Of a stretch of DNA of 64,000 bases, positions 4,275-56,963 are shown in pieces. Made by a program: the position numbers and the translations under genes. How positions within the stretch are numbered: the stretch's first letter is position 1; every line of letters starts with the position of its first letter. The DNA lies in contig CAZLKB010000003.1 in the NCBI GenBank assembly GCA_964560005.1, positions 40,712 to 104,711 of the forward strand, read 5' to 3'. The notes beneath the pieces were generated by a model, which saw nothing but the letters and a program-made list of their open reading frames with translations, did not search any database and was not told where the DNA came from. The DNA is from an uncultured Gammaproteobacteria bacterium (lineage in GTDB: Bacteria > Patescibacteriota > Patescibacteriia > Patescibacteriales > GWC2-42-12).

Positions 4275-4291
4275 AATTGCCGGCTTCTTTG

Positions 4292-4612: not shown

Positions 4613-4634
4613 TTTTCTATTTTTATATTGTTAG

Positions 4635-6632: not shown

Positions 6633-6737
6633 AAATGTAAAAATTAAAATGAAAAATGACAGTTAAAAATGTAAAATTAATAATTTTTAATTTTGCATTG
6701 TCATTTTACATTTTGAGATTTACATTTTACATTTTGC

Positions 6738-12984: not shown

Positions 12985-13350
12985 TTAAATTAAAAGTTGA
13001 ATAGTTATTTCATAAATAACCAAGACCGGCAACAAAACCCAAAAACAGATCGCTAAAAACGCCAGGCTAAACCAAACCAGCATAACCAGGCTTCTAAAAA
13101 TGATCTGGCCTAAACGGACAAAAAAGCTGATCAGCATCCCCTGCCAATCATATTGAGCGTACATCGGCTTAAAAATATTTTTTATCCAAACCAACAGCGC
13201 CAAAGCTTTTTGCTGGTTTATCAAAAAATTTCTTACTCCCAAAATAAATTTGACCAAGCCGCGCGAATACCACCAAACCGGGAAATAAATTATATCCCTG
13301 AATAATTCAACAATAATTTGACCGGCGTAAAAAATAAAACTATTAGACAT
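12985..13350 (-). CDS. Hypothetical integral membrane protein (121 aa), operonic with the Clp-like ATPase
   Basis: Three or four hydrophobic helices. Its stop abuts the start of the Clp-like gene. Confidence 0.5.
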   Translation of the reverse strand: MSNSFIFYAGQIIVELFRDIIYFPVWWYSRGLVKFILGVRNFLINQQKALALLVWIKNIFKPMYAQYDWQGMLISFFVRLGQIIFRSLVMLVWFSLAFLAICFWVLLPVLVIYEITIQLLI

Positions 13351-13518
13351 AAAAAATTTAAAATTTAAAAATCAAAGTTAAAAATGACAATGTAAAATTT
13401 AAAAAATTATTATATTCAAACATTTTGCATTTTTAACTGTCATTTTGCATTTTGAGATTTTAACTTTACAATTTTATTATACCATATTCCCCTTTTTTGC
13501 ACCAAGCGCCGGCGAGCC

Positions 13519-14576: not shown

Positions 14577-14996
14577 ATGAAAAAAATATTAACTAAAGTG
14601 AAACTGCAAATCCCGGCCGGCCAAGCCAATCCCGCTCCTCCGGTAGGACCGGCCTTAGGCCAGCACGGCTTGAATATCTCGCAATTCTGCCAGGCATTTA
14701 ATGAAAAAACCAAGGCTAAAATGGGCGATATCACACCGGTAGAAATAACCATCTACGAAGACCGAACTTACACATTTATTTTAAAGACCCCGCCGGCCGC
14801 GGAATTAATCAAAAAATACGCTAAAATTCCTAAAGGTTCGGGCAAGCCGCTGGCCGAAAAAGTCGGTAGTATTACTAAAGCTCAACTGAAAGAAATTGCT
14901 GAAATCAAAATGCCGGACCTGAATGCGCATGATATTGAAGCGGCTATGAGAATCGTCGCCGGCACCGCACGGCAAATGGGAGTGGAGATTAAGTAG
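14577..14996 (+). CDS. rplK: 50S ribosomal protein L11
   Basis: [26 protein letters not shown] matches the bL11 signature. Confidence 0.95.
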
Positions 14997-15118
14997 TTGA
15001 AAATTAAAAAATCAAAATGTAAAATTACAGTTTAAAATGCAAAGTTTAAATTTATAAATTTTAAATTTTACATTGTCATTTTTAACTTTAATTTTTGCAT
15101 TTTACATTAATAACTAAT
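14997..15118. repeat. Family A palindromic AT-rich intergenic element (aaaatgtaaaat/gacaatg type) between rplK and rplA
   Basis: aaaatcaaaatgtaaaattacagtttaaaatgcaaag...aaattttacattgtcatttttaactttaatttttgcattttacatt has imperfect inverted symmetry. One of at least seven copies in the window. Confidence 0.7.
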
Positions 15119-25452: not shown

Positions 25453-25971
25453 ATGGCCGACCTAAAAAATCCGCATCTCACCAGGCTTAGCTGGGATGAA
25501 ACTTTCATGAACTTGGCGCTTTTAATCGCGCAAAGAACCGCTTGCCGCTTCCACATTGTCGGCGCAGTTTTCGTTGATGATAACAATCGGATAATTTCCC
25601 TGGGCTACAACGGTCCGTCCGAAGGCGATTACCACTGCAACGAAGTCGGCTGCGCTAAAATTGACGGCAATCCGGTGACGAAAAAAATAGAACGCTGCCG
25701 CGGCGTGCACGCGGAAATTAACGGGATTATCAATTCGCAAAATACCAGCCGCCTAAAAGGCGGCGCACTTTACACCACGGTTCTCCCCTGCTACGACTGC
25801 ATGAAAGCTATAAATAACGCCGGTATTAAAGAGGTCGTCTACAAGGAAGTCTATAAGCGCATCCAGACCGGTGGAGAAAAATTTGAGGAAGAACGCGAAG
25901 TTTGGAACTTGGCGGAAAAACGCGGCATAAAAATTAGGAAGTATGAAGGAAAGGTATATTTAAAAATTTAA
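25453..25971 (+). CDS. dCMP deaminase (ComEB-like cytidine/deoxycytidylate deaminase)
   Basis: Zinc-binding HAEINGI ... PCYDCMKAI motifs. Confidence 0.85.
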   Translation: MADLKNPHLTRLSWDETFMNLALLIAQRTACRFHIVGAVFVDDNNRIISLGYNGPSEGDYHCNEVGCAKIDGNPVTKKIERCRGVHAEINGIINSQNTSRLKGGALYTTVLPCYDCMKAINNAGIKEVVYKEVYKRIQTGGEKFEEEREVWNLAEKRGIKIRKYEGKVYLKI

Positions 25972-26083
25972 AATGTAAATCTCAAAATGTAAAATAACAA
26001 TGCAAAGTGTAAAATTACTTCTTAAGACATTTTGCATTTTAAACTGTCATTTTCAATTTTGATTTTTACATTTTACATTATCT
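25962..26083. repeat. Family A palindromic AT-rich intergenic element
   Basis: aaaatgtaaatctcaaaatgtaaaataacaatgcaaagtgtaaaatt...cattttgcattttaaactgtcattttcaattttgatttttacattttacatt. Confidence 0.7.
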
Positions 26084-26632
26084 ATGATTCTCGGCATTAA
26101 AAAACTCCACGAACTGGTTAAAGAAATAAAGCTGGTAGAAAACCTCTGCGACCGGGAAATGAATAATCCCGAAGGCGCGGGCTTTGATTTACGCTTAGGC
26201 GAGGTCTATGAACTTTCCGGCAACGGATTTTTAGGCGTGGAAGAGCGAGATACGCCCAAAATTAATTTAGCGGCAAAACACGATCCGGCCAAAACGGAAG
26301 CGGATAACTTTTTCATTTTTAAACCCGGCAAGTATTACTTGATTAAAACCATGGAAAAGGTCAATCTGCCCACCACCCTATCCGGCATAATCTTTCCTCG
26401 CACTACCATGTTCCGCTCCGGACTCGGTTTATTTAACGGCGTCGTCCAGCCCGGCTATAAAGGTGAATTGACTTTCGGCTTAGCTAATCTGGGCCAAAGC
26501 GACATAAAAATATCCTTCGGCGCCCGCGTCGTGCATATCACTTTTCATGAAGTTCTCGGCCAAGGCAACCAATACCGCGGCCAATGGCAAGGCGGACGAG
26601 TGGCGACAGAGGGCAAGGAAACGCAAGTGTAA
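26084..26632 (+). CDS. dcd: dCTP deaminase / dUTPase-superfamily protein
   Basis: Beta-barrel dUTPase-like motifs ([14 protein letters not shown]; [37 protein letters not shown]). Its length and N-terminus fit Dcd. Confidence 0.65.
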
Positions 26633-27645: not shown

Positions 27646-27710
27646 TAACTAATAATTAAAAATTTAATCATTCATTGAAAATTGAGAATTGAATATTGAA
27701 AATTAATTTT

Positions 27711-32440: not shown

Positions 32441-33415
32441 ATGAAAAAAATTTTTACCAGAAAACAATTAGAAAAAAAATTCACTGATATTAATTGGATT
32501 TTTGCTTATGAAGAACTAATCTCTGCATACGATGAAAAATATAAAATGGTAATGCTGATTGAAGATTACATGCAGGGTGTATATGCCGAGGCCTGGCGGG
32601 TATATCATTTCCCCAGAACCAGCCGACTAGTAGTTTTTGCCAAGCGCGAAGGCACTAAATCAATTTTTTACCTGAAAGAGGGCTCGGTCAAATTAAACTT
32701 AATTCCCTCTTTCTCTCCCATCGGCATAAGCAAGGTGCAAGTCAAACAAAACGAAATTGACATTCTCTATAGCGGCATTGGCGGCGGCGGCGTCAGCGCG
32801 GCCTACTGCCGCGGCTTGGCTAAAGGGGTAAAGGGGGTGCGTATTTTAAAACATGCCGGCGGTAATCAGCTGGGCGAAGCTATTGTTACTATGCCTCGGT
32901 ATCACAGCTTAATTATTGGCGTTGACGACACCGATACGGAAAAAGAAGGCGCAACTTATTCTTTGGCCCATAATATCGCTAAAAAAATTTCCGACGGAAA
33001 AAATATCAGATATATCTCCCATGTCAATACCCAGCTTTACCCGGAAAACCCGGAAAAAACCAAAAATTGCATGGCCACCAGCATTGGCTTTTTAGTTAAG
33101 CCGGGATTGGAAGATAAAGTTATAGAATCATTTAGAAAGGAACTGGCTGATGGAACCTTAAGCGACCAAACCGGCATGACGGTTTTGCGTGGATTCTATA
33201 TCCCCCAGGAATTAAAAACTTTTATCAAGAGATTGCGGACTAAATTTTTTAAAGACCTGTCTTATGCGAAACAACTTATGGACAGATTAGGTATAGAATA
33301 TTATGTTATCACCGGAGAAAAGGGCTTAATCGGAGCTTTGGGTGCGATTTGCCTGCATGACAATCCTGATTTGGCCGCCAGTTTACCACCGGGTTTCGAT
33401 AGTCGAGATAAATAA
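32441..33415 (+). CDS. Hypothetical protein (324 aa) with a GxDDTD motif reminiscent of TiaS/DUF1743-type kinase domains (tentative)
   Basis: IIGVDDTDTEKEGATYSLAHNIAKKI and a glycine-rich GIGGGGVSAAYCRG segment. No confident family assignment. Confidence 0.5.
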   Translation: MKKIFTRKQLEKKFTDINWIFAYEELISAYDEKYKMVMLIEDYMQGVYAEAWRVYHFPRTSRLVVFAKREGTKSIFYLKEGSVKLNLIPSFSPIGISKVQVKQNEIDILYSGIGGGGVSAAYCRGLAKGVKGVRILKHAGGNQLGEAIVTMPRYHSLIIGVDDTDTEKEGATYSLAHNIAKKISDGKNIRYISHVNTQLYPENPEKTKNCMATSIGFLVKPGLEDKVIESFRKELADGTLSDQTGMTVLRGFYIPQELKTFIKRLRTKFFKDLSYAKQLMDRLGIEYYVITGEKGLIGALGAICLHDNPDLAASLPPGFDSRDK

Positions 33416-34383: not shown

Positions 34384-35673
34384 TTACTTAATTATTTCCC
34401 CCTCTAAACCAAAGTCTCTAGCCTTCACAATCATAACTTTAACAAATTTTCCAACTAAACCTTTTATCGATTCGGAATCTTCGACCACTGTTAATTTGCC
34501 GGTCCCGGTTCTCGCTAACCAATCGCCTGCTTTATTTTTGCCATCAATCAAAACTTCTATAGTTTTACCTAGATATTTTTTATTATTAAAAAACGCGGTT
34601 TTTTTCAATACTTCATTCAGCTCTTCTTCTCTGCGCCGTTTTTCCTGCCTTGATACATTATCCTTCAACTTGGCTGCTTCAGTTCCTGGCCTTGAGCTAT
34701 ATTGGGCCAGATAAGCCATATCAAATTTAACTTGTTTAAACAATTTTACCGAATTATTAAATTGCTTCTTGGTTTCGCCCGGAAAACCGACGATCAGATC
34801 CGTGGTTATGCTCGCGTCCGGCATAACGATTCTAATTTTTTTTATTAAGCTTATATAGTGTTCAATCGTATACTTTCTGTTCATTTTTTTAAGGACTTCA
34901 TTATCCCCGGCTTGCGCCGGCAGATGAACCTGATGGCAGACTTTCTGGCACTGCGCCATGGTTTTAATCAGTTTAGCCGACATATCCTTAGGATGACTGG
35001 TAAAAAACCTAACCCAAAAATTTCCCTTAATATTGTTAACCATGTTCAGCAGGTCGGCGAAGTCAATTTTACCCGACCGATAGCTATTTACATTCTGTGC
35101 AATTAATATAATCTCTTTATAGCCTTTGTCAACTAAATTTTTTACCTCATTTAAAATGTCGTCTGCTTTCCGATAAACTTCCCGGCCGCGCGCGTATGGC
35201 ACAACGCAATACGAGCAAAAATTATTACAGCCATTGCCGATCGGCACCAAGGCGGAAAATTTAGAGTTATATTTTGGTTTTATTGATAAATAATCATTTT
35301 TATTTTGCACATCTTTTTGAAAATTAATTTTTGAAAATTCATTGAAAATTGAAAATTGAAAATTGAAAATTTCCTTAATCTGCATCCATTCATCCACATA
35401 CTTTTCCAATCTTCTTTTAACATCTTTTCTCTCCGATAAACAACCGGTTAAAATAACTTCTGCTTTTTTGTTTTCCTTTTTAATCCTAGGTATTAAACCG
35501 TAAATTCTATTTTCAGCAGATTGCCTCACTCCGCAAGTATTAATCACAACCAAATCAGCCTGATATTTATTATCAATATATTTATAACCCTTGTTTCCCA
35601 ACAAGCCAGCCAATCTTTCGCTGTCTGATTCATTCATCTGGCAACCAAAGGTGGTGATATGATAAGTCTTCAT
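34384..35673 (-). CDS. miaB: tRNA-i6A37 methylthiotransferase MiaB (radical SAM MTTase) carrying a heptamer-repeat-encoded linker
   Basis: MTTase N-domain (ITTFGCQMNESDSERLAG), radical SAM CNNFCSYC and a TRAM C-terminus. The linker FNFQFSIFNEFSKINFQ is encoded by (AATTTTC)n at 35315-35371. Confidence 0.9.
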   Translation of the reverse strand: MKTYHITTFGCQMNESDSERLAGLLGNKGYKYIDNKYQADLVVINTCGVRQSAENRIYGLIPRIKKENKKAEVILTGCLSERKDVKRRLEKYVDEWMQIKEIFNFQFSIFNEFSKINFQKDVQNKNDYLSIKPKYNSKFSALVPIGNGCNNFCSYCVVPYARGREVYRKADDILNEVKNLVDKGYKEIILIAQNVNSYRSGKIDFADLLNMVNNIKGNFWVRFFTSHPKDMSAKLIKTMAQCQKVCHQVHLPAQAGDNEVLKKMNRKYTIEHYISLIKKIRIVMPDASITTDLIVGFPGETKKQFNNSVKLFKQVKFDMAYLAQYSSRPGTEAAKLKDNVSRQEKRRREEELNEVLKKTAFFNNKKYLGKTIEVLIDGKNKAGDWLARTGTGKLTVVEDSESIKGLVGKFVKVMIVKARDFGLEGEIIK

Positions 35674-35675
35674 AA

Positions 35676-35790
35676 AAATTAAAAATGTAAAATGTAAATC
35701 TCAAAATGACAATGTAAAATTTAAAATTATTAAATTAATAAATTTACATTTTGAACTGTCATTTTTCATTTTGATTTTTACATTTTACAT
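35676..35790. repeat. Family A palindromic AT-rich intergenic element between miaB and dnaJ
   Basis: aaaatgtaaaatgtaaatctcaaaatgacaatgtaaaatttaaaatt...tttacattttgaactgtcatttttcattttgatttttacattttacattt. Confidence 0.7.
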
Positions 35791-35794
35791 TTTT

Positions 35795-36883
35795 TTATAT
35801 TCCCAACTCCCTCAGCATTTCTTTTTGCTTTCTTGACAAACTGGTCGGAATTTTAACGATTATTTCCACTAAGTGATCGCCCCTGGAACTGCTATGTATA
35901 TGCGGCACGCCCTTGCCTTTAAGCCGAATCACTCGGCCCGATTGCGTGCCTTCGGCGATTTTTAATTCCACCGGACCGTCAACCGTTTCCACATCAATTT
36001 TTCCGCCTAAAGCCGCCAGCGCTATATTAATTTCAGCTTTTGATAAAATATCAAAGCCGTCACGCGCGAATCTTCTATCCGGATTGACCCTAACCTTTAC
36101 ATATAGATCTCCAGCCTGGCCGCCCTTGGCTACGGCTTCGCCTTGCCCGGCGAATCTTAAAGTTTCTTCATTGTCAATTCCGGCCGGAATCTTAATTTTT
36201 AAAACGGCTATCTCGTGGATTACGCCCGAGCCTCGGCATTGTTTGCATTTTTCTTTAATAATTTTACCTTCACCGTGGCAGGCGGTACAAGTAGTTTGCA
36301 CCTGCACATTACCTAAAATTGTTCTCTGCATTTTAGTCACCCTGCCCGTACCGCGGCAGGTTGGGCAGGTCTCCGCACCAATGCCGGGTTCGGCGCCCGA
36401 GCCCTTGCACCTAGAGCAACTGACGGCTTTTTTTAAACTAATTTCCCGCTCTACGCCGAAAATCGCCTCTTTAAAATCAATATTTAGGATTACTTCGATG
36501 TCTCGTCCGCGGCTTGCCCGCCGCCGCCCTGATCGGCCACCTTCACCAAAACCAAAAATATCGCCAAAGCCGCCGAAAATATCGCCCAGGTCGTCCATGT
36601 TGATGTTAAAGCCCTGGCCACTGTCAAAACCGCTGAAACCGGAAAAGCCTCCGCCCCCGCCTGACCGCGCCTGTTCAAAAGTTTGGCCATATTGGTCATA
36701 TTGGGATCGTTTCGCGGAGTCGCTTAAAACCTGATAAGCCTCATTCAGCTCCTTAAACTTGGCTTCGTCGCCGCCCTTTTTATCCGGGTGGCACTCGTGA
36801 GCTTTTTTCCGAAAAGCCTTTTTGATTTCATCTTGATTAGCACCCTTACTCACGCCGAGAATATTGTAGTAGTCTTTGGACAT
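35795..36883 (-). CDS. dnaJ: Chaperone DnaJ
   Basis: J domain with HPD (KAHECHPDK), G/F-rich region and four CxxCxGxG zinc-finger repeats. Confidence 0.95.
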   Translation of the reverse strand: MSKDYYNILGVSKGANQDEIKKAFRKKAHECHPDKKGGDEAKFKELNEAYQVLSDSAKRSQYDQYGQTFEQARSGGGGGFSGFSGFDSGQGFNINMDDLGDIFGGFGDIFGFGEGGRSGRRRASRGRDIEVILNIDFKEAIFGVEREISLKKAVSCSRCKGSGAEPGIGAETCPTCRGTGRVTKMQRTILGNVQVQTTCTACHGEGKIIKEKCKQCRGSGVIHEIAVLKIKIPAGIDNEETLRFAGQGEAVAKGGQAGDLYVKVRVNPDRRFARDGFDILSKAEINIALAALGGKIDVETVDGPVELKIAEGTQSGRVIRLKGKGVPHIHSSSRGDHLVEIIVKIPTSLSRKQKEMLRELGI

Positions 36884-36972
36884 AATTTATTTAATCATCA
36901 GTGTATTGATTGACAGAAATCAACTATCTATGATAATATAAAATCACTAATCTCAACAAAAGGAATAAGACA

Positions 36973-37098
36973 ATGAAATTCGTAATTATCGGGTTTTGCA
37001 TTCTCGTCGTGTTCGGACCGTTTATTATGGCGCTCCTTAAGGCGGCAAGCAAGCCAATGCCGTCACCAACCCCGCCCGACGATCGTCGGGATCTCTGA
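36973..37098 (+). CDS. Small GC-rich membrane peptide (41 aa), hypothetical
   Basis: MKFVIIGFCILVVFGPFIMALLKAASKPMPSPTPPDDRRDL. Opposite strand to its neighbours and followed by a terminator. Confidence 0.3.
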   Translation: MKFVIIGFCILVVFGPFIMALLKAASKPMPSPTPPDDRRDL

Positions 37099-37110
37099 GC
37101 GGACGAATGT

Positions 37111-37166
37111 CCCGCTTAACGCCCGCACGATTTCCATCAATTTGGCGATCAGGCGGGCTTTTTTTA
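37111..37166 (+). terminator. Candidate terminator (gcccgc ... gcgggc stem plus T run)
   Basis: gcccgcacgatttccatcaatttggcgatcaggcgggc followed by ttttttt. The long loop makes this uncertain. Confidence 0.4.
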
Positions 37167-37200
37167 TTCGCTAAATTCGTTATAAATCAGCCCCTATTCG

Positions 37201-37809
37201 CTATTTACTTCTTTTCCGTAAACTCCCCTTCAATCGGTCCTTGATCCTTTTTCTTATTTCTTCAGTAAATACTCGCTTGGAGATTTCAGTATAAAATTTA
37301 TTATTTTTGATTCTAAAATCGCACATTGATGCCCGGCCGGCTTTATAATATTTTAAATCGGCTTCAAACTGTTCCTTGAAAGAATCGGATAAAGCATCGG
37401 CATCAATTAAAATTCTTTTATTTATCTCTCTAGGGTTAGTGAATTTATGCGCCTTTATTATCTCGGCAACTTTCTTAATTTTTCTCGGTTCATAATTAAG
37501 TTCGCGCAAAACTTTAGCCGCGATTATGGCTGAATATTTAAGATGCAATTTTAACGCCTTAATTCTATCTTTTTTGTCTTGGCTTTTCTGCAACTTCTTA
37601 GAAACCTTGCTCCAGCCGATGTCATGTAAAATTGCCGCCGGTATAAGCAGACTTTCGTCGCCTATGCCAGACTTAATTATTATTTCCATGGCCTTAACCA
37701 CGCCCTTAACATGCGTAAGATCTTTTTCTCTTCCGGCTTTTATGTAAGGCAGAGCTAATTTCCAGATTTTTTGGTATTGTTTGTCCATTTTTTTATTTAG
37801 TCGCGACAA
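37201..37809 (-). CDS. HD-domain phosphohydrolase
   Basis: H...HD motif (LLIPAAILHDIGWSK). The C-terminal 15 codons are encoded by a 44-bp copy of the dnaK 3' end read in another frame. Confidence 0.75.
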   Translation of the reverse strand: MSRLNKKMDKQYQKIWKLALPYIKAGREKDLTHVKGVVKAMEIIIKSGIGDESLLIPAAILHDIGWSKVSKKLQKSQDKKDRIKALKLHLKYSAIIAAKVLRELNYEPRKIKKVAEIIKAHKFTNPREINKRILIDADALSDSFKEQFEADLKYYKAGRASMCDFRIKNNKFYTEISKRVFTEEIRKRIKDRLKGSLRKRSK

Positions 37810-38590
37810 CTATCATATCCTCCGATTTCTCGTTGTACAATTTACCTCTCCAATCGGCATAAACTTCGCATGATTTAAACCCAACGCGTCTACACAATTT
37901 TACGAACTCATCTTTCGTGTAAACCTGAACGGAATAATCTTTTCTTTCTCTTCTCCCATCATTTTTTAACAAAATCCATGAACCGTTTATCCTCTTGGCA
38001 ATATCGTTATAGTTTTCCACTATTTTAAGTTTATCGCCGGATTTAAGAATTCTTATCTCGTTAAGTTTATATTCGCCGTTCACAATTCTCGGGATATTTA
38101 CATCAGTATGCATTAAAAATTTTCCGCCTGGTCTTAATGCCTTAAAGAAATTCATCAAAACTTTGTAATTGTCTTCTTCCTTATCAAAAAACCCAAACGA
38201 AAAAAACATATTTATGACTGCATCAAACTCGGAGTCGTATTTTATATCAATCATGTTCTCCTTGATAAATTCTACTTTAACAAGATCTTCCCTGGCGGCA
38301 ACTTTGGCTTTTTCTAAATGATAAGAATTAATATCCGACCCAGTCATCTTAAAACCTTTTTTGGCTAAACTAATACTGTGTCGGCCGTAGCCACAGGGAA
38401 TATCCAATATACGAGCGTCCGGTTGCAAGTTTAACAGCTTAATCACGCCTTTTACTTCCGCGTCAGTCCGTTGCCCCAGATTTTGTTTTTCACCTGAAAG
38501 ATACCCTTCTTTTGAATCATCCCCTTGCATATAAAAACGACCGAAAAATCCGTATTTTTCTTGCCACCAAAAAGTTTTTTTATTTGTCAT
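37793..38590 (-). CDS. Class I SAM-dependent methyltransferase
   Basis: Motif I ILDIPCGYGRHSISLAKKG. The start is taken at MTNKKTFWW (38590); the ORF-track extension to 38689 overlaps the dnaK 3' end. Confidence 0.8.
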   Translation of the reverse strand: MTNKKTFWWQEKYGFFGRFYMQGDDSKEGYLSGEKQNLGQRTDAEVKGVIKLLNLQPDARILDIPCGYGRHSISLAKKGFKMTGSDINSYHLEKAKVAAREDLVKVEFIKENMIDIKYDSEFDAVINMFFSFGFFDKEEDNYKVLMNFFKALRPGGKFLMHTDVNIPRIVNGEYKLNEIRILKSGDKLKIVENYNDIAKRINGSWILLKNDGRRERKDYSVQVYTKDEFVKLCRRVGFKSCEVYADWRGKLYNEKSEDMIVVATK

Positions 38591-38603
38591 AACAAAAAAT
38601 TTG

Positions 38604-40568
38604 TTATTTCTTTTCCGTAAACTCCCCTTCAATCGGCCCTTGATCTTTTTTCTGTTCGCCTGCTCCTGACCCGGGTTGCGCGCCGGCATTCGCCTGTTCT
38701 GATCCTGGTATAGGTCCGGTACTTTGCGCTCCTTGGGCGGATTGCGCCGACTGATACATAGCCGCGCCGATCTTTTGCGCCGTAGTATTTAATTCTTCCA
38801 TCTTCTTTTTTATCTCATCAAACTTATCGCTATCTTTTACCTTCTTTAAGGCCTCAACTTTTTCTTCCAATTCTTTCTTATCTTCAGGCTTAACCTTATC
38901 TCCAGCCTCTTTCAGCATTTTTTCCGTTTGGAAAATTACGGCCTCGGCCTGATTTTTGATTTCCACCTGTTCTTTTTTCTTTTTGTCTTCCTCGGCGTGC
39001 AGTTCGGCTTCCTTTTTCATTTTTTCCACTTCTTCTTTAGATAAACCGGAAGAAGCGGTAATGGTAATTTTTTGCTCCCTGCTCGTAGCCTTATCTTTGG
39101 CTTTAACATTTAAGATGCCGTTGGCGTCAATATCAAAAGAGACTTCCACTTGCGGAATGCCGCGAGGCGCCGAGGGTATGCCGTCCAAAATAAATCTGCC
39201 CAAAGTCTTATTATCCCCGGCCATCGGCCGCTCGCCCTGTAAGACATGGATTTCCACGCTGGTCTGACCGTCGGCCGCAGTGGAGAAAACTTGCGACTTT
39301 GAAGTCGGGATCGTGGTATTTCGTTCAATTAAAGGCGTGGCCACGCCGCCCAGAGTTTCAATGCCCAGAGTTAAAGGAGTTACATCTAATAGTAAAACAT
39401 CTTTAACATCGCCCTGGAGAACCCCGGCTTGCACGGCCGCGCCTAAGGCCACGACCTCGTCAGGATTGACAGTCAAATTCGGCTCCTTGCCGAAAAATTC
39501 TTTAACCGTCTTTAAGACTAAGGGCATGCGGGTCATGCCGCCGACCATGAGTACTTCCTCTATATCTTTTACATCAACGCCAGCGTCTTTAAGCGCGGCT
39601 CTAACCGGAGCGATGGTCGCGGCCACTAAGTCGCCGGTCAGCTCTTCTAATTTCGCTCTGGTCATCTTCATGACTAAGTGTAAGGGCCGGCCGCTCGGGT
39701 CAACCGTAATAAACGGCTGATTGATTTCGGTTTCCGGCATAGTGGATAACTCAATCTTTGCTTTTTCCGCCGCTTCTTTTATTCTTTGGAGAGACAAGGG
39801 GTCTTTAGATAAGTCTGCGCCTTGATCTTTCTTAAACTGTTCAATAATCCATTTAATTATCCTTTGATCAAAATCGTCGCCGCCTAAGTGCGTATCGCCG
39901 TTCGTAGATTTAACTTCTACCGTGTCCGAACTGACATCCAAAATGGAAATATCAAAGGTTCCGCCGCCTAAATCGTAAACCGCGATTTGCTGACCCTTCT
40001 TCTTTTCAAAGCCGTAAGCTAGCGCGGCTGCGGTCGGCTCGTTTATGATTCTTTTTACATCTAAGCCGGCAATGCGCCCAGCGTCCTTGGTCGCTTGCCT
40101 CTGCGCGTCATTAAAATAGGCTGGTACGGTTATGATCGCTTCGGTGATTTTCTCGCCGATCTTGGCTTCAGCGTCGGCTTTCAACTTGGCCAGTATCATG
40201 GCCGAAATTTCCTGCGGCGTGTATTCTTTCGCCTGCCCAGAGCCTGCCGAAGGGCCGATTTTCACTTTAACGCCGCCATTAGCTTTAATAATTTTATACG
40301 GCATAACTTTCAAATCGCGCTGGACTTCTTCATCTTCAAAACTGCGGCCGATTAACCGTTTAATAGAAAAGATAGTGTTTTCCGGATTGGTTACGGCTTG
40401 GCGCTTGGCCGACATGCCGACCAATCGTTCGCCGTTTTTCGTAATCGCGACAATAGAGGGCGTGGTTCTCATGCCTTCAATGTTTTCAATGATTTTCGGT
40501 TGTCCGCCTTCGATTATCGCCATGGCGCTGTTGGTAGTGCCTAAATCAATACCTAATATCTTACTCAT
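38604..40568 (-). CDS. dnaK: Chaperone DnaK (Hsp70)
   Basis: [18 protein letters not shown], the EEVD-less C-terminus and full-length Hsp70 architecture. Confidence 0.97.
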
Positions 40569-40599: not shown

Positions 40600-40971
40600 T
40601 TAATTTTTTCTGATGGGCTTCTTGGTAAAAATTATTTTGCTTTTTTGATTTTTTGCTTTTTCACGAATAAAATCATATTTAGGATCGTCCGTTAAGTCAG
40701 CCAAGTTGTATATCATTCTTTTTATATCATGCGGACCCGGCGCATCTCCTAACTCTTCACATTGCCTTAAAATTATTTCAATTTCATTTGCAGGTAGCGA
40801 ATGAATATAAGCCATTTCAGTACTTATAGCACAATCTTGCCATTCAGGTTTTATGGCTTTTTTTAATGCCGCCATATCTGCATCTGAAATTTGCAAGGTT
40901 CTCTCCTCAAGTTCTGCCATAAAAGCCATATCTGAAGGAAAATTTGGTTTATTCTTGATGATTTCTTTCAT
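40600..40971 (-). CDS. Hypothetical protein (123 aa) co-transcribed upstream of dnaK
   Basis: Clean ORF ending 29 nt before the dnaK start. No family recognised. Confidence 0.5.
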   Translation of the reverse strand: MKEIIKNKPNFPSDMAFMAELEERTLQISDADMAALKKAIKPEWQDCAISTEMAYIHSLPANEIEIILRQCEELGDAPGPHDIKRMIYNLADLTDDPKYDFIREKAKNQKSKIIFTKKPIRKN

Positions 40972-41020: not shown

Positions 41021-41452
41021 TTATTTCTTCGCCGTCTTAATCTTAATCGTCTTTGGTTTGGCTTCCGGCGCCTTAGGTACGGCTATTTTCAGTATGCCAT
41101 TAACCGCTTCGGCCGAAGCTTTTTCGCCGATTACATGGGTCGGCAAGGGCACGCTTCGGTAAAAACTACCGCGCCTGATTTCTTTCCGATAATAATTTTT
41201 GTCTTCCACTTCGCTTTTCTTTTCGTTTTCACCCTTGATGATTAAAACATCATTTTCAATGGAAATGTCCACTTTTTCCGGGTCAATCCCGGCTAATTGC
41301 GTTTCCACATAGACTTTATCCTTATCCTGATAAATGTCCACGGCCGGAACCAAGCCGGTAAAACCGCCCCGAGCGGGCATGTAGTCGTCAAACATTTTGT
41401 CCATGTCCTCGAATGGTTCAAGGAATGGCGTCCACTTAATTATCGGTAACAT
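41021..41452 (-). CDS. Small heat shock protein (Hsp20/alpha-crystallin family)
   Basis: Alpha-crystallin domain (PAVDIYQDKDKVYVETQLAGIDPEKVDISIENDVLIIKGE...FYRSVPLP). Confidence 0.9.
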   Translation of the reverse strand: MLPIIKWTPFLEPFEDMDKMFDDYMPARGGFTGLVPAVDIYQDKDKVYVETQLAGIDPEKVDISIENDVLIIKGENEKKSEVEDKNYYRKEIRRGSFYRSVPLPTHVIGEKASAEAVNGILKIAVPKAPEAKPKTIKIKTAKK

Positions 41453-41510
41453 ATATTTGTTCTCCTTCCCCGCTCAAACTATATTCCAAAGCTTGAGCGA
41501 TAATTATATT

Positions 41511-41660
41511 ATAATTTAAAATGTAAATCTCAAAATGTAAAATGACAGTTGAAAATGCAAAATGTCTAAATTAATAATTTTAAACTTTACATTGTCATTG
41601 CTCTGCAATGACCCCGCATCTGCGGGGTGCTAGCGGAGCTAGCATTTTACATTTTGATTT
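41511..41660. repeat. Family A palindromic element carrying an inserted GC-rich hairpin, between grpE and hsp20
   Basis: aaaatgtaaatctcaaaatgtaaaatgacagttgaaaatgcaaaatg...actttacattgtcatt plus ctctgcaatgaccccgcatctgcggggtgctagcggagctagc. Confidence 0.65.
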
Positions 41661-41661
41661 T

Positions 41662-42525
41662 TTAACTTTTCATTTTATAAACTACCACCTTGGCCGCTTC
41701 TATCACCTTGCCATTAAGCTTATACCCGGCCTTCATCTCGCGAGCCACTTTGCCATCCAATTTTTTATCATCCGTTTCTTCGTTCTGTATGGCTTCCATG
41801 GTATTATGATCAAATTTTTCTTCCGCGGTTTTAATTTCCGTTACCCCGATTTTTTCCAAAACATCCTTAAATTGCTTAACCACATGCTTAACGCCGGTTA
41901 GCCATTCGTCCGCCGACTCATTATTATGATGTTCAATAGCCATCTTTAAATGATCGTAAACCGGTAAAATTTCTTTTAGCATTATTTCATTGGCAAACAT
42001 GGCGAACTCCATTTTTTCCTTAGCCGTCTGCTTCATTAAATTCTGATAATCAGCCAAAGCGCGCTTATATAGCCCCTCGTGATCGTTCTCTCTGGCTGTA
42101 ATAAATTTTTCCACGCTGACTCTGGTGTAAGGGTTTAATTCTAATTCTTTTAGAGCTGTCTCCGGCTTAATCCATTTATATTCTTCCATCTCCCTATTCT
42201 TCTCGGCCATCTTTCCGCCGGCCAGATGGGCGCTATAATCCAAAAAAACAAAATGAACTTTTCTTTCAAATTCTTTTGGATAAACGCAGTCCTGCAGGTC
42301 GTTAAATTTTATATTATCAATTTCCAAGCCGGTTTCTTCTCTAATTTCCCGCTTTAAAGCTTGCTCGCAGGTTTCACCTAATTCAACATGGCCGCCCGGA
42401 ATCTGCCAGTATGCTCCCCACTTTGAAGATTTGGTTAATAAAATTTCGTCCTGATTATTATAAATTATCGCCGCCACTACGGTTTCCGGATATTTTTTAT
42501 CGCTCTTTTTTATTTCTTCCGCCAT
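41662..42525 (-). CDS. grpE: Nudix hydrolase domain fused to nucleotide exchange factor GrpE
   Basis: N-terminal Nudix box (GGHVELGETCEQALKREIREETGL, residues 44-67). C-terminal GrpE helical pair and beta domain (PVYDHLKMAIEHH...FDHNTMEAIQ...GYKLNGKVIEAAKVVVYK). Position between hrcA and dnaK. Confidence 0.8.
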   Translation of the reverse strand: MAEEIKKSDKKYPETVVAAIIYNNQDEILLTKSSKWGAYWQIPGGHVELGETCEQALKREIREETGLEIDNIKFNDLQDCVYPKEFERKVHFVFLDYSAHLAGGKMAEKNREMEEYKWIKPETALKELELNPYTRVSVEKFITARENDHEGLYKRALADYQNLMKQTAKEKMEFAMFANEIMLKEILPVYDHLKMAIEHHNNESADEWLTGVKHVVKQFKDVLEKIGVTEIKTAEEKFDHNTMEAIQNEETDDKKLDGKVAREMKAGYKLNGKVIEAAKVVVYKMKS

Positions 42526-42526: not shown

Positions 42527-43213
42527 TTATTTCTCTATTAAAATATCATTAATAAATTTTACTAACGCTAAGTTTTTTTCATAATTCATCCTCATCGGCC
42601 CTAATACTCCCACTAATCCGACATTATCGCCCAACCGATATTTCGTAATAATGACACTACAATAAGCGCCGAACGGATTTTTCGCGCCCAGCATAATCTG
42701 CGTCCCGAATTTTAAATCATTAAAAATGCGGCCGATGATTTCATCCAGGCGATCAATCAAGCCGGAAATATCATAAATCATATCGGCTTGGGAAAATTCC
42801 GGCTGATGCAAAAGGTTGGAAACCCCGGTGTAATATAAATTATGCTTGTGGAAAGCCCAGAAAATCGCGTTGCCGGAAATTTTTGCCATAATCTTGGCCG
42901 CTTGCTTAAAGCTCATTTCTTCCTTCTTGGCCAAGATTTCTTTAAAAATTTTTGCTTCGCTTTCGCTTAACTTCTTTTCGCTTAAGTTTTCCAAATAAAA
43001 ATTATAGGCTTTTTCCGTCGGGATGCGGCCGGCCGAAGTATGCGGCTGGGCGATGTATCCGGCTTCTTCCAGGTCCGCCATTTCATTTCTAACCGTGGCC
43101 GAAGAAATGTCCAAATTATACTTTTCCACCAAGCCTTCAGAACCGATGGGCATAGCGGTTTTTATGTATTCTTTGATTATGGTCTTTAGTATTAATTCCT
43201 TGCGTTTGTCCAT
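42527..43213 (-). CDS. hrcA: Heat-inducible transcription repressor HrcA (short form)
   Basis: N-terminal wHTH (ELILKTIIKEYIKTAMPIGSEGLVEKYNLDISSATVRNEMADLEEAGYI). A CIRCE operator sits upstream. Confidence 0.85.
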   Translation of the reverse strand: MDKRKELILKTIIKEYIKTAMPIGSEGLVEKYNLDISSATVRNEMADLEEAGYIAQPHTSAGRIPTEKAYNFYLENLSEKKLSESEAKIFKEILAKKEEMSFKQAAKIMAKISGNAIFWAFHKHNLYYTGVSNLLHQPEFSQADMIYDISGLIDRLDEIIGRIFNDLKFGTQIMLGAKNPFGAYCSVIITKYRLGDNVGLVGVLGPMRMNYEKNLALVKFINDILIEK

Positions 43214-43297: not shown

Positions 43298-43326
43298 ATT
43301 ATATAAAACATTAGCACTCCTGTCAA
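43298..43326 (-). promoter_or_regulatory. Sigma70 promoter of the hrcA operon (TTGACA-N17-TATAAT on the minus strand) overlapping CIRCE
   Basis: Minus-strand -35 ttgaca (complement of 43321-43326) and -10 tataat (complement of 43298-43303), 17-nt spacer. Confidence 0.55.
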
Positions 43327-43337
43327 GAGAGTGCTAA
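43311..43337. promoter_or_regulatory. CIRCE operator (HrcA binding site), perfect inverted repeat
   Basis: TTAGCACTC-CTGTCAAGA-GAGTGCTAA matches the CIRCE consensus TTAGCACTC-N9-GAGTGCTAA exactly. Confidence 0.85.
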
Positions 43338-49793: not shown

Positions 49794-50927
49794 TTATTCC
49801 AACATTTTCAAAATAATTCTTACCATATCCCGGTTCGCTCCTTCCTTTATCACCCGCCCCATCTTTTCTCCCAGCTTTTTCTGCAAGTCTTTATTATTAA
49901 TCAAATTTTTTATCTCCGTAACAAATATTTCAGAGGTTAAGTCTTTCTGTTCTAACACTATGGCCGCGCCTTTAAACATAGCCGCATTCTCTTCCTGGTG
50001 CGACTCCGGCATGGGGATAATTATGGCCGGCTTTTTTAAATATGACAATTCGGATAAAACTCCCAGCCCGGCGCGCGTCACGACTACTTCGGCTAATTTA
50101 AGCGCCTTTGCCATTTGCTCCGTTTCTAAAAATTCGTATTGCGCGTAATTTTTTATCTCTAATCTCTCATCTCTACTCTCCTTACCTTTTCCTGTAACAT
50201 GAATAATCTGGCAAATCTTGGTCAACTCCCCAAAGCTCTGTTCCACTAACCGGTTAATTGCCATCGCTCCTGTTCCCCCGCCAACGATTAAGACAACGGG
50301 CAAACTTTTGTCTATTTTATTAAATTGAAAATTGAAAATTGAAAATTGAAAATTTTTCCTAATGGGGTTTCCGGTCCAAACCGCTTTTTTGCCGTAGTCA
50401 CGCATTGATTTTTCAAAAGTTACGGTTATAATCTTAGCAAAAGGCGCCATTAATTTATTGGCCAAGCCTGGCCGGACATCTTGCTGATGGATTAAAACCG
50501 GTACGCGCAAAAGCCAGGCCGCCCAAACCACCGGCACACTGACGAAACTACCCGCGCTCATCACCATGTCCGGCCGCCACTTTAGCATTATGAAAAGAGC
50601 TTGAAAAAAACCTAGTTTAATTTTAAAAATATCCACTAAATTATTTAAAGAAAAATACCGGCGCCATTTTCCGCCGCTAATCGCCTTGAATTTTATTCCT
50701 TCTTTTTCCACCATTACTTTCTCCACTCCGAATTTAGTGCCCAGCCATAAAAATTCGTAACCCCCCGCGCCCTCTCTTCTGCCCCCTTGATAAAGAGCCT
50801 GTCCCGCACTTGATGCGGGAGGGTTAGGGGGATTTTTCATTTCATCATAAATAGCCAAGAGCGGCGCCACCGACCCACCCGTACCGCCTCCGGAAAAAAG
50901 AATTTTGTAAGTTTTTTCATTATTCAT
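49794..50927 (-). CDS. murG: UDP-GlcNAc:lipid I GlcNAc transferase MurG with two repeat-encoded segments
   Basis: GGTGGSVAPLLA N-terminus, GT28 N and C domains. The PPNPPASSAGQALYQGGRREGAGG insertion (GC-rich element 50761-50835) and the NFQFSIFNFQF interdomain linker ((AATTTTC)n, 50324-50355) are both in frame. Confidence 0.9.
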   Translation of the reverse strand: MNNEKTYKILFSGGGTGGSVAPLLAIYDEMKNPPNPPASSAGQALYQGGRREGAGGYEFLWLGTKFGVEKVMVEKEGIKFKAISGGKWRRYFSLNNLVDIFKIKLGFFQALFIMLKWRPDMVMSAGSFVSVPVVWAAWLLRVPVLIHQQDVRPGLANKLMAPFAKIITVTFEKSMRDYGKKAVWTGNPIRKNFQFSIFNFQFNKIDKSLPVVLIVGGGTGAMAINRLVEQSFGELTKICQIIHVTGKGKESRDERLEIKNYAQYEFLETEQMAKALKLAEVVVTRAGLGVLSELSYLKKPAIIIPMPESHQEENAAMFKGAAIVLEQKDLTSEIFVTEIKNLINNKDLQKKLGEKMGRVIKEGANRDMVRIILKMLE

Positions 50928-52107: not shown

Positions 52108-52243
52108 TAATTTTCAAATCACAATTTCCAATTTTCAATGAATTTACAATGATTAAATTTTCAAACGAAAAAATTTTTCATTGTAAATTAATCCATTGAA
52201 ATTTCATTGAAAATTGGCGCTTGAAAATTGAAAATTATTCTAT

Positions 52244-55643: not shown

Positions 55644-55772
55644 ATTTTTAATTTCTAATTTTTAATTTTTAAACAATGATTTAATGTCTAAATTTTCAAA
55701 CAAAAATTATAAAGTGTTTTTAATTTTAAAAATTAAAAAATTGAAAATTGTTTGAAAATTAGAAATTGAAAA

Positions 55773-56963
55773 TTGAAAATTGTTTATAAAAATATGCCTG
55801 TAAATTTACCCAAACAACAAAGTTCAGCGCAATCCGACGAGCGGGCGGCCGGTACAGAAAAAACCGAAACCAAGGCGGCGGGTGAAAATATGATAAGCAG
55901 AATTAATGATTTCTTGGCGAAATTTTCCAATATCCCTATTTCCGAAAAATTATTTTTCGTCCAATATTTGGGAATAATGCTAAAAGCCGGTATTTCTTTA
56001 TCGGCCGCCTTAAAAACCTTGGCGCGACAGACTAAAAACAGAAAATTTGCTAAAATCATAGATAATATTTCAAAAAATGTAGAAAGGGGCGTAAGCTTTA
56101 CTGACAGTTTAAGGCCGTATGAAAAAATCTTCGGACAATTATTTATAAATATGATTGAATCCGGCGAAATTTCCGGCAAACTGGAAGAAGTCTTAAAAAA
56201 ACTATACATCCAATTTAAAAAAAATCATGAATTAGTTTCAAAGGTTAAGGGCGCTTTAACTTATCCGGTTGTCATACTTATAGCCATGTGCGGCATAGGA
56301 ATTTTTATGATGATAGTCGTAGTGCCGAAAATTACCGCCATGTTTCAAGATTTTAACGCCGAGCTGCCCCTGCCAACCAAACTATTAATAAAATTTTCCG
56401 ATAGCTTGGTCTCTCACGGCTTGCTTTATTTAATCGGCGCGGTCGTCTTCGTCTTAATTTTCGTGCAATTGATAAAAACCGCCAAAGGCAAACATATTTT
56501 TCATGCTGTTTTATTAAAATTGCCGATTTTCGGACAAATTATTAAAAAAATAAACTTAGCGCGTTTCGCCAGAACCATCAGCTCTTTATTGAAAACCGAT
56601 ATAATGATCATTAAAAGTTTTCAAATTACCGGGCAGGTTCTGGGTAATATCCAGTATCGCGATGCTTTATTGGACATGAGCAACAAGATAAAAAAGGGTG
56701 GCACCATCAGCGAAATAATTTCCAAATACCCAAAGCTCTTCCCGCCGGTTGTCGTGCAAATGATAGCCGTGGGCGAAGATACCGGCGAGCTTGACTATGT
56801 GCTGGAAGAACTAGCTGAATTTTACGAAGAAGAAATCGACCAAACCATGAATAATTTGCCCGCCATAATCGAGCCGGTGCTGATTTTAACCCTTGGCTTG
56901 GTCGTCGGCGGCATGGCAGTGGCGATTATTATGCCAATGTACTCTTTAACTTCAGCAATTTAA
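55773..56963 (+). CDS. pilC: Type IV pilus inner-membrane platform protein PilC (GspF family)
   Basis: Duplicated GspF domains (LGIMLKAGISLSAAL...; KYPKLFPPVVVQMIAVGEDTGELD) and three TM helices. Confidence 0.85.
   Translation: MKIVYKNMPVNLPKQQSSAQSDERAAGTEKTETKAAGENMISRINDFLAKFSNIPISEKLFFVQYLGIMLKAGISLSAALKTLARQTKNRKFAKIIDNISKNVERGVSFTDSLRPYEKIFGQLFINMIESGEISGKLEEVLKKLYIQFKKNHELVSKVKGALTYPVVILIAMCGIGIFMMIVVVPKITAMFQDFNAELPLPTKLLIKFSDSLVSHGLLYLIGAVVFVLIFVQLIKTAKGKHIFHAVLLKLPIFGQIIKKINLARFARTISSLLKTDIMIIKSFQITGQVLGNIQYRDALLDMSNKIKKGGTISEIISKYPKLFPPVVVQMIAVGEDTGELDYVLEELAEFYEEEIDQTMNNLPAIIEPVLILTLGLVVGGMAVAIIMPMYSLTSAI

Follow-up and report, generated by a model that had tools for sequence, protein, structure and literature searches.

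A probably displaced dnaK 3' end behind a methyltransferase-HD hydrolase gene pair in the heat-shock operon of an uncultured patescibacterium

Gene 3' ends serve the Escherichia coli elements e14 and phage 21 as points of entry: both integrate into the 3' end of icd and carry a replacement for it. Homology-facilitated illegitimate recombination (HFIR) makes its joins at a microhomology of 3-10 bp (PMC6382021) and has been described during natural transformation in Acinetobacter, S. pneumoniae and P. stutzeri (de Vries & Wackernagel 2002, reviewed in PMC6382021). A stretch of 64 kb from an uncultured member of the Patescibacteria (the window; 64,000 nucleotides were analysed) can be set against both. 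Here, dnaK and dnaJ are separated by genes for a class I SAM methyltransferase (MTase) and an HD-domain phosphohydrolase (HD), and a second dnaK 3' end lies behind the HD gene. This repeat is probably the scar of one HFIR event, in which two versions of a hypervariable dnaK-dnaJ interval were fused. The locus comprises the following features, in the order of transcription of the operon.

43298..43337, minus strand: predicted heat-shock promoter, TTGACA-17-TATAAT (12/12), upstream of hrcA and overlapping CIRCE
43311-43337, minus strand: perfect CIRCE operator, TTAGCACTC-N9-GAGTGCTAA, 27 nt (0 mismatches; 0.01 expected by chance)
42527..43213, minus strand: hrcA (PF01628 in the orthologue; 72-89% identity to relatives)
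41662..42525, minus strand: grpE fused to an N-terminal NUDIX domain (PF00293, 8e-24; PF01025, 7e-34)
41021..41452, minus strand: hsp20 (domain search)
40600..40971, minus strand: 123-aa protein with no family match, in a second variable slot between hsp20 and dnaK
38604..40568, minus strand: dnaK, 654 aa
38604..38653, minus strand: repeat copy A, the functional last 16 dnaK codons and stop
37793..38590, minus strand: class I SAM methyltransferase, 265 aa (Pfam and fold matches)
37201..37788, minus strand: HD-domain phosphohydrolase, 195 aa from the ATG at 37788 (PF01966 and homologue alignment)
37247..37255, minus strand: junction microhomology AAGAAAAAG, 9 nt, found in the native HD 3' end (L087) and in EKKKD-type dnaK tails (L084, L087, L074)
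37205..37254, minus strand: repeat copy B, the probably displaced dnaK 3' end, open in the dnaK frame for 17 codons, then TAA
37121..37166, plus strand: GC-rich hairpin followed by a T-run and ATTCGCT, putative terminator of the small ORF (sequence inspection)
36973..37098, plus strand: 41-aa predicted membrane protein, convergent with the operon (ORF list and flanks of relatives)
36910..36939, plus strand: sigma-70-like promoter of the small ORF, TTGACA-16-GATAAT (11/12, strong)
35795..36883, minus strand: dnaJ

The CIRCE/promoter region lies 85-124 nt upstream of hrcA, and the fusion of NUDIX to grpE was likewise found in L002 and L084. The MTase gene begins 13 nt past the dnaK stop and terminates 4 nt ahead of the HD start codon. 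Both enzyme genes are located downstream of the perfect CIRCE promoter, and no recognisable promoter or terminator was found between dnaK and MTase/HD, so that the two genes are probably carried on the HrcA/CIRCE heat-shock transcript.

A repeat search of the window returned one two-copy direct repeat family (37205-37254 and 38604-38653), which, AT-rich intergenic repeat families aside, is the sole high-identity direct repeat present. The copies are 50 nt long, identical at 47/50 positions and 1399 nt apart from start to start, and their longest common exact run is 29 nt. The initial annotation had reported such a dnaK-end repeat with 44 nt and 2 mismatches; the repeat is real but longer, because the match runs through the dnaK-frame TAA, the end point of both copies. 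It is also not a product of chance, since a 46-nt degenerate pattern had exactly 2 matches in 64 kb compared with 0.00 expected (100 shuffles). All three mismatches between copies A and B (3/3; chance 0.006-0.044) fall on third positions and are synonymous in the dnaK frame, whereas they are non-synonymous in the HD frame. The codon states of copy B also occur in genuine dnaK tails (L074, L084), and no sampled tail other than copy A matches copy B at more than 46/50 positions. The sequences downstream of the two copies have nothing in common. Three synonymous differences are few, and differences that all arose in a functional copy A after a duplication in situ would be synonymous too.

The HD gene ends in this repeat. 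Its product matches PF01966 with 37.6 bits (Pfam cut-off 22), and residues H33, H62, D63 and D138 of the H...HD...D motif are invariant in the alignment. Fifteen homologues are 183-203 aa long and end in ...EKRLK or RKRIK, whereas the window protein runs 12 residues further. The native part of the gene ends near 37240, and the last 12 codons (37204-37239) together with the stop (37201-37203) consist of dnaK-tail DNA in another frame; the two frames overlap in an A-rich stretch of copy B, where that of dnaK is offset by -1 from that of HD. The chimeric HD C-terminus proposed earlier is thereby borne out: 12 non-native residues come from the repeat, and the structure model gives them low confidence. 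At the DNA level, the window HD 3' end aligns with the HD end of L087 at 50/54 nt up to AAGAAAAAG, and the match is to the dnaK tail beyond it. The AAGAAAAAG stretch is located both in the last HD codons (EEIRKR) and 48 nt before the dnaK end (EKKKD), and AAGAAAAAGGA is present in the dnaK tails of L084, L087 and L074.

Between copy B and dnaJ, a 320-nt spacer carries the small ORF with its promoter and terminator. The terminator was read by eye from the sequence, its loop being too long for the scanner; in L062/L054 and L087 its TTTTTTTATTCGCT tail likewise comes directly behind the dnaK stop, and a AGCGAATAAAAAAA-plus-hairpin terminator lies 3' of the genuine dnaK stop in the same loci. The promoter and 5'UTR of the small ORF can be aligned with their L086 counterparts, and TTGACA promoters with opposite-strand small transmembrane ORFs were seen just upstream of dnaJ in L084, L088 and L062. 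Such opposite-strand ORFs occupy the same position in L084, L062, L086, L087 and L088, of which that in L088 also has 41 aa. The small-ORF protein showed no significant similarity to that of L088, nor to the L062/L084 ORFs, and homology to L088 would rest on position, size and terminator/promoter DNA. In a blastn search of all fetched loci, the 320-nt spacer gave no match at E<=0.01, and its homology to relatives was seen solely in targeted local alignments of terminator and promoter. The spacer contains no tRNA (the only tRNAs of the window lie at 4291-4707), and the window lacks a GCGACGAAGCAATCTCACG hairpin that follows dnaK in L087 and L003. Copy B together with the spacer matches what natively lies at the 3' side of dnaK in the closest relatives, with terminator, 41-aa ORF and promoter. 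The opposite-strand 41-aa ORF and its terminator, formerly counted among the contents of the inserted cassette, do exist but lie outside the repeat-bounded unit as part of this flank. The notion that the second repeat was copied from the present dnaK is doubtful too, given the native flank and the three differences that are synonymous in the dnaK frame; copy B is probably no such copy but looks like the displaced original end on its native downstream flank.

Adjacency of dnaK and dnaJ, the premise on which the gap had been judged unusual, is not the rule in this clade. The interval is a hypervariable hotspot across about 35 related loci. In 13 of them, dnaK and dnaJ are 0-5 nt apart, and the intervals of others contain HD, DUF559, 23S-IVP, UDG-like, DUF3467, a J-domain duplicate and small membrane-protein genes. 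The closest relatives (L084, L062, L088) have the order dnaK, stop, terminator, opposite-strand small membrane ORF, promoter, dnaJ. HD is recurrent in the interval and was found in the P0002 contig, L002, L074, L086 and L087; the P0002 contig, which is the nearest HD and dnaJ relative, was compared without its DNA, and its junctions were therefore not read. L086 and L087 show the order dnaK, small ORF, HD, dnaJ, with HDs 74-77% identical to that of the window. HD thus recurs between dnaK and dnaJ in relatives without the repeat, which comes near to the finding that the initial annotation had named as speaking against its own reading; the MTase-HD pair was seen in only one other contig, L003, with the identical stop/4-nt/ATG junction and a normal HD end without dnaK tail. 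No second dnaK-tail copy was present in L002, L051-L084 or L087, despite many different inserts.

In the reading we favour, two configurations of the interval would have been joined. The first, dnaK-small ORF-dnaJ, is that of L084, L062 and L088; the second would be dnaK-MTase-HD, for which relatives offer dnaK-HD-dnaJ and one contig the MTase-HD pair with the same gene junction. DNA of a close relative, recombining by HFIR, would be the most likely source, with one end anchored in the conserved dnaK (or dnaJ) and the other joined at the 9-nt AAGAAAAAG microhomology of HD end and dnaK tail. As an outcome, the complete tail (copy A) would have stayed on dnaK, and the old tail (copy B) would have been stranded after HD with its native downstream flank still attached, while the HD gene would have exchanged its stop codon and the 2-3 codons before it for 12 codons of the stranded tail. 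Neither an exact donor (dnaK-MTase-HD with a normal HD end) nor an exact empty site was present in any sampled genome, and the one-event model is for this reason a parsimony argument; the direction of transfer, like the HFIR mechanism, is inferred. In exact-protein look-ups of dnaK and HD, the arrangement of the window recurred in a single further contig, and no empty-site allele turned up. By sliding-window identity, the 5' 480 codons of dnaK are nearest to L062/L084 and the last ~150 to L077/L061; a mosaic with a change of best partner near codon 500 is only suggested, as the relatives are just 80-88% identical and the C-terminal region is fast-evolving.

An in-situ rearrangement might lead to a similar picture. 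An L087-like ancestor (dnaK, tail, small ORF, HD, dnaJ) would have undergone tandem duplication by unequal crossing-over at AAGAAAAAG, for which this microhomology is equally fit, followed by replacement of the first small ORF by the MTase gene and deletion of the second HD. The window order is indeed a circular permutation of the L087/L086 unit, and copy B is nearer to copy A than to other tails. However, at least three events are needed versus one, and the two tail copies are followed by unrelated sequences. Synonymous differences at 3/3 positions in the dnaK frame would be unexpected if copy B had drifted as non-dnaK sequence, and the window promoter-to-dnaJ junction is like that of L084, where there is no HD, without any trace of a deleted HD. 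We regard this course of events as unlikely.

Site-specific integration is improbable. MTase-HD would then be an integrative or cis-mobilisable element of small size that targets the 3' end of dnaK, with the 50-nt repeats as attL/attR and a replacement gene end carried along. The direct repeats flanking the unit, the reconstituted dnaK 3' end, copy differences that are synonymous only, like those of phage-borne replacement gene ends, and the reappearance of the pair in L003 would all suit such an element. Against it, no integrase or transposase was found in the unit or within ~10 kb, where the flanking ORFs are housekeeping genes (thyA, tmk, gatB, miaA, miaB, PBP2, Mur ligase, MurG, FtsW) and no recombinase of any kind was seen; therefore, nothing points to the dnaK end as a dedicated attachment site. 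The right junction removes the stop codon of the cargo and shows an A-rich microhomology of 9 nt in place of a defined core site, a second dnaK tail occurs in 0 of ~35 related loci despite diverse inserts, the HD of L003 ends normally, and a viral-contig scan retrieved no relatives of the MTase. Of the insertion by recombination suggested earlier, recombination at the dnaK 3' end that placed MTase and HD and duplicated the tail can be retained.

It is very improbable that sequences of two co-occurring strains were wrongly assembled into one chimeric contig at a shared dnaK tail, as might be feared for a metagenome-assembled genome and a locus that varies among strains of the clade. An independent assembly (L001, a Logan contig from SRR12133404) is 100% identical over 5785 nt through both junctions, a path from HD to copy B needs a shared k-mer although HD end and dnaK tail have only 9 nt in common, and the exact stretches between the repeat copies do not exceed 29 nt. 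Canonical slippery heptamers have the form X-XXY-YYZ. It is hardly credible that copy B was retained for a -1 ribosomal frameshift in its A-rich run, by which HD would acquire the conserved DnaK C-terminal motif, as the open dnaK frame up to TAA, the synonymous copy differences, the -1 offset and the A-rich overlap might suggest. In the HD frame copy B reads A-AAA-AGG and is no canonical heptamer of this form; the A-AAA-AAG motif expected for copy A has been abolished in it by an A-to-G change. No second example exists in L002, L051-L084 or L087, and an argument from conservation is weak with just three differences.

Fusion of two interval versions by HFIR would provide a natural example of a genome-reduced, uncultured member of the Patescibacteria gaining genes without mobile-element machinery; the join, at a 9-nt microhomology next to a highly conserved gene, would have left behind a scar that can be dated and a protein whose borrowed tail is frame-shifted. 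Genes come and go in this clade at the dnaK-dnaJ junction, a hotspot where a fixed operon feature is usually assumed. Neither the 12 residues added to HD nor the stranded piece of dnaK should be taken as functional by annotation pipelines. In practice, little follows beyond the probable expression of two enzymes with the heat-shock chaperones. A wider idea, which we consider doubtful, is that the heat-shock operon of the clade acts as a general landing pad, with the invariant dnaK tail and dnaJ head as homology anchors for relatives to swap small accessory genes (HD, MTase, NUDIX, DUF559, UDG-like, small membrane proteins) under HrcA/CIRCE, and that the recurrent HD and NUDIX are tied to the chaperone cycle, e.g. 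by clearing a stress nucleotide.

As for the enzymes, the HD protein resembles stand-alone HD phosphohydrolases, among them B. subtilis YpgQ and the structural-genomics proteins 2pq7 and SE1688, in its all-helical HD fold, the retained H...HD...D metal ligands and a size of ~185 aa, but differs from them in sequence (14-18% identity, TM-score ~0.6). Foldseek retrieved generic HD hydrolases only, a profile search against the PDB gave no match, and the protein is taken to be a generic stand-alone phosphohydrolase. The MTase matches PF13649 (6e-15) and eight further MTase families, has a Rossmann-type SAM-binding domain (model pLDDT 91) and finds SAM MTases as best fold matches, with a fold of the type of small-molecule or peptide amine N-methyltransferases; every NCBIfam match was far below its cut-off. 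A role in defence or signalling, as had been suggested, found no support, since PADLOC yielded generic Cas3-HD matches (1e-5) and a partial mad2 methyltransferase-domain match without system context, PHROGs was negative or generic, and the two folds are those of an amine N-methyltransferase and a generic HD protein. With NmbA (bacillithiol N-methyltransferase, PDB 9RI2, PMC12719100) and the related capped amine N-methyltransferases CypM, CcbJ and GSMT, the MTase shares a class I Rossmann core and beta-strand cap. NmbA is among its top fold matches and the best solved structure by sequence (E 1e-26 to 4e-32, ~25% identity), but a conserved N-terminal WW-EEYGFFG-FY-GD-SKEGY segment remains unaligned. 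The family is also present in archaea, which are without bacillithiol synthesis (PMC12719100); for this reason, together with the low identity and the unaligned segment, the substrate probably differs from that of NmbA. The P. polymyxa family member P0187 (WP_346836045.1) is absent from the P. polymyxa accessions in the PMC12719100 supplement. At ~25% identity to 9RI2, the NmbA lead was not raised to orthology.

Compared with the Firmicutes-type HrcA/CIRCE operon, the window has the same perfect CIRCE overlapping a consensus promoter and the four core genes in the same order, but is interrupted by hsp20, the 123-aa ORF, MTase, HD and the opposite-strand small ORF, and its GrpE is fused to a NUDIX domain. 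As with e14 and phage 21 in icd, a gene 3' end is directly duplicated around an insert, the gene is intact and the copies differ mainly synonymously. In contrast to these elements, the insert is without integrase, measures just 1.4 kb and carries two metabolic-type enzymes, one cargo gene is cut short at the junction, and no relative reuses the site as att. With HFIR, the locus shares a gain of variant or foreign DNA without dedicated recombinase and, in dnaK and dnaJ beside the junction, possible homologous anchors, although the sliding-window comparison of dnaK did not locate the anchor crossover. The gene-end duplication and the reading-frame extension are by-products rather than defining traits of HFIR. 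One junction of the window lies in a 9-nt microhomology, inside the documented range of 3-10 bp, and the sequence switches partner exactly there.

The heat-shock operon of the window lies on the minus strand, and two genes separate dnaK from dnaJ, one for a class I SAM methyltransferase (MTase) and one for an HD-domain phosphohydrolase (HD).

Layout of the heat-shock operon (window positions)
43298-43337, minus: sigma-70-type promoter (12/12) overlapping a perfect CIRCE operator
42527-43213, minus: hrcA
41662-42525, minus: NUDIX-GrpE fusion with the NUDIX hydrolase domain at the N-terminus (PF00293, 8e-24, and PF01025, 7e-34)
41021-41452, minus: hsp20
40600-40971, minus: 123-aa orphan ORF without a family match
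38604-40568, minus: dnaK
37793-38590, minus: class I SAM methyltransferase, 265 aa
37201-37788, minus: HD-domain protein
between HD and dnaJ: spacer of 320 nt
35795-36883, minus: dnaJ, with miaB and then miaA next in order

The dnaK stop is followed by the MTase start after 13 nt and the MTase stop by the HD start codon after 4 nt, and no strong promoter or terminator was predicted by the scanner from dnaK to the end of HD.

The final 50 nt of dnaK, stop codon included (38604-38653, copy A), recur with three mismatches at 37205-37254, at the 3' end of HD (copy B). A degenerate 46-mer has only two sites in the 64 kb, which are the two repeat copies, and shuffles expect none; AT-rich intergenic repeat families excepted, no other comparable direct repeat was found in the window. 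Logan contig L001 (SRR12133404), assembled independently, agrees with the window at all of 5785 nt, both junctions included. A chimeric assembly path as the source of this structure is unlikely, because only 9 nt are common to the end of HD and the tail of dnaK and the longest exact stretch common to copies A and B is 29 nt. The duplication of the dnaK 3' end reported in the initial annotation was confirmed.

Copy B also extends the HD reading frame. Among 81 HD homologues, the close ones are 183-186 aa long, and those aligned all terminate at ...EKRLK, RKRIK or a few residues off. The window protein carries 12 additional C-terminal residues, encoded by dnaK-tail DNA with the reading frame shifted by one base; the chimeric C-terminus proposed before stands. 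In an AlphaFold model (mean pLDDT 89.9), confidence was low only in this tail and at the N-terminus. Against a relative's locus with a 74% identical HD (L087), the 3' region matches at 50 of 54 nt, through AAGAAAAAG, after which L087 goes on with ATTAAATAAATAA (…RLNK*) and the window with GATCAAGGACCGATTGAAGG…, the dnaK tail. Genuine dnaK tails in L084, L087 and L074 read GAA AAG AAA AAG GA(T/C) and contain the same 9-mer. Since it is found in both the HD end and genuine dnaK tails, the alignment places the novel joint in this 9-nt microhomology (37247-37255).

The initial annotation took copy B for a fresh copy of the dnaK end, and listed the small opposite-strand ORF behind it with the two enzyme genes of the gap. 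The flanks point to another origin for copy B and place the small ORF in the native flank. What lies downstream of copy B is arranged like the native dnaK 3' flank of the closest relatives. The terminator AGCGAATAAAAAAA with its GC hairpin lies 3 nt past the dnaK stop in L062/L054 and downstream of dnaK in L087 too. An opposite-strand small membrane-protein ORF comes next, of 41 aa in the window (36973-37098) and in L088, where it has a similar terminator hairpin, and of 125-142 aa in L084 and L062. A strong TTGACA promoter is located immediately upstream of dnaJ in the window, and this promoter and the 5'UTR can be aligned with L086. Copy A, by contrast, is followed by 13 nt and then MTase. 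Given these flanks, the best reading of copy B is that of the original dnaK end in a displaced position, and copy A, MTase and the HD body would be the incoming piece. The mismatches agree with this reading. Each of the three falls on a third codon position of the dnaK frame, where it is synonymous (AAA/AAG, GGG/GGA, AAA/AAG), and all alter residues in the HD frame; the chance probability is 0.006 under random substitution and 0.044 if only transitions are allowed. Relatives have the codon states of copy B in genuine dnaK tails. The pattern is the one that orthologous dnaK ends of two close relatives would show, and not that of a copy drifting within HD.

The small ORF belongs to a unit at 36910-37166 (plus strand) with a near-consensus promoter (TTGACA-16-GATAAT) and its own terminator, convergent with dnaK-MTase-HD and divergent from dnaJ. 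L084, L062, L086, L087 and L088 have equivalent small ORFs on the opposite strand. No dnaJ promoter was found on the minus strand of the spacer in the scan, and dnaJ expression may therefore depend on read-through past this antisense unit.

Four sources gave the relatives: homologues of HD with the contigs that carry them, a profile of HD run against GTDB, a metagenome scan with a degenerate dnaK tail (33 loci) and dnaJ homologues. According to record titles, the clade is Patescibacteria. Across it the dnaK-dnaJ interval is hypervariable, a turnover hotspot seen over L051-L083, L084, L086-L088 and window positions 36884-38603.

The dnaK-dnaJ interval in relatives
gap of 0-5 nt: 13 loci
gap of 78-144 nt: 4 loci
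DUF559 endonuclease-like gene: L053, L072, L077, L079
23S-rRNA-IVP four-helix-bundle gene: L076; remnant in L066/L080
HExxH protein and J-domain-only partial dnaJ duplicate: L061/L075
UDG-superfamily gene and one more gene: L063
DUF3467 gene: L068
opposite-strand membrane-protein ORFs: L062/L054, L084, L088
HD gene: P0002 contig, L002, L074, L060, L086, L087

A Hypoth_Ymh gene is likewise among the contents. Direct adjacency of dnaK and dnaJ, assumed as the norm before, is therefore not the rule in this clade, with a gap of 0-5 nt in 13 loci, and HD is a recurrent occupant. HD recurs there without any repeat, and a second dnaK tail was found in none of the other loci compared. MTase is the rarer of the two; the window and L003 alone have it next to HD, and L003 has the same stop/4-nt/ATG junction and a normal HD end.

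A GC-rich hairpin element (GTCATTGCGAG...GACGAAGCAATCTCACG ... CGTGAGATTGC...CGCTCGCAATGAC) lies immediately 3' of the dnaK stop in L087 (359-500) and upstream of MTase in L003 (1-125), where the arms are some 90% identical. L002 (7950-7990) has a shorter relative after dnaK, and the element of L087/L003 is absent from the window. Judged by this element, the L003 pair may also lie just downstream of dnaK. The J-domain duplicate in L061/L075 (125 aa, 51% identical, beside the insert) is a second example of the hotspot retaining a piece of a flanking gene. In L066 (1952-2066) and L080, a 113-nt gap holds a C-terminal remnant (...CEEICKIIGKIQKT...) of the 23S-rRNA-IVP-type gene that is intact at the corresponding place in L076, which is evidence of a decayed former insert.

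The hsp20-dnaK interval is variable as well, as noted over the window and L052, L054, L057, L059, L061, L062, L077 and L084. It holds the orphan ORF (40600-40971) in the window, DUF4145 and a 120-aa ORF in L084, and other content of 1.3-1.9 kb in several metagenome loci. The NUDIX-GrpE fusion, of which a literature search found no description, is also kept in L002 (4506-5372) and L084 (1498-2346); L051, L056, L063, L065 and L081 have a separate NUDIX-like ORF between hsp20 and dnaK instead.

Dispersed AT-rich imperfect intergenic palindromes of about 100-130 nt (4367-4496, 6619-6738, 13338-13477, 14992-15113, 25957-26090, 35669-35802, 41505-41676), with a core AAAATGTAAAATGACAATGTAAAATTTAAAA pairing with ACTGTCATTTT..TTTTGATTTTTACATTTTACATTTT, could be terminators or REP/MITE-like elements; two copies lie within the operon (dnaJ/miaB and grpE/hsp20). 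Runs of GAAAATT-type heptamers were found at 27647-27704, 35300-35371, 50297-50354, 52179-52236 and 55692-55806, one of them within the miaB reading frame, encoding ...FNFQFSIFNEF.... A 324-aa protein adjoining miaA and miaB (32441-33415, plus strand) matches the TiaS TCKD domain (PF22641, 1.5e-10), which is known from archaeal tRNA-Ile agmatidine synthetase.

HD matches the HD domain of Pfam, and its H, HD and D residues are invariant. No PDB match was obtained by sequence profile, and by fold it is nearest to uncharacterised stand-alone HD hydrolases, B. subtilis YpgQ and HD-GYP domains (TM-score about 0.6, 14-18% identity). The MTase family (265 aa) is very conserved: it numbers 847 proteins at E<=1e-20, and identity stays at 55-68% between Patescibacteria, archaea and a single Paenibacillus polymyxa genome, a spread suggestive of frequent horizontal transfer. 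In some members (P0106, P0164, P0194) the MTase is joined to a GrpB domain (PF04229; 432 aa) or to an HTH_3/XRE domain (330 aa). The closest solved relative is NmbA, a bacillithiol N-methyltransferase (9RI2; PMC12719100), yet at only about 25% identity, a likeness of sequence and fold and not an established orthology; capped amine N-methyltransferases such as CypM, CcbJ and GSMT come next. Defence-system and phage libraries gave nothing specific, so that a small-molecule role is more likely than DNA modification; of a defence function there is no sign. Outside the clade, HD precedes grpE-dnaK-dnaJ in a Woesearchaeota MAG (L021 5728-11220) and lies about 1.4 kb downstream of dnaJ in the hrcA-grpE-dnaK-dnaJ cluster of a MAG labelled Gammaproteobacteria (L031 575-6465); most of the remaining homologues (some 30 loci from Patescibacteria and DPANN archaea) stand in unrelated contexts. 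Speculatively, the recurrent HD-chaperone association and the NUDIX-GrpE fusion hint at a nucleotide-related link.

The simplest account of the locus would be one recombination between two alternative configurations, dnaK-MTase-HD and dnaK-small ORF-dnaJ, with one crossover at the 9-nt microhomology and the other in dnaK or dnaJ as a conserved anchor. In the window dnaK, codons 1-480 are most similar to L062/L084 and the final ~150 to L077/L061, but the relatives are too distant and the C-terminal region too variable for this comparison to place the anchor crossover firmly. Tandem duplication in situ, starting from an L087-like unit, would need at least three events. Integrase-mediated insertion would have truncated its own cargo gene, is not repeated in any relative and lacks an integrase within about 10 kb. 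A programmed frameshift at copy B lacks a slippery site. The earlier interpretation is partly supported: recombination at the dnaK end and the chimeric HD are retained, and of a dedicated insertion system there is no sign. The single recombination would be of the homology-facilitated illegitimate type, for which joins at 3-10 bp are documented (PMC6382021), and the locus is a well-resolved case of an event of known kind.
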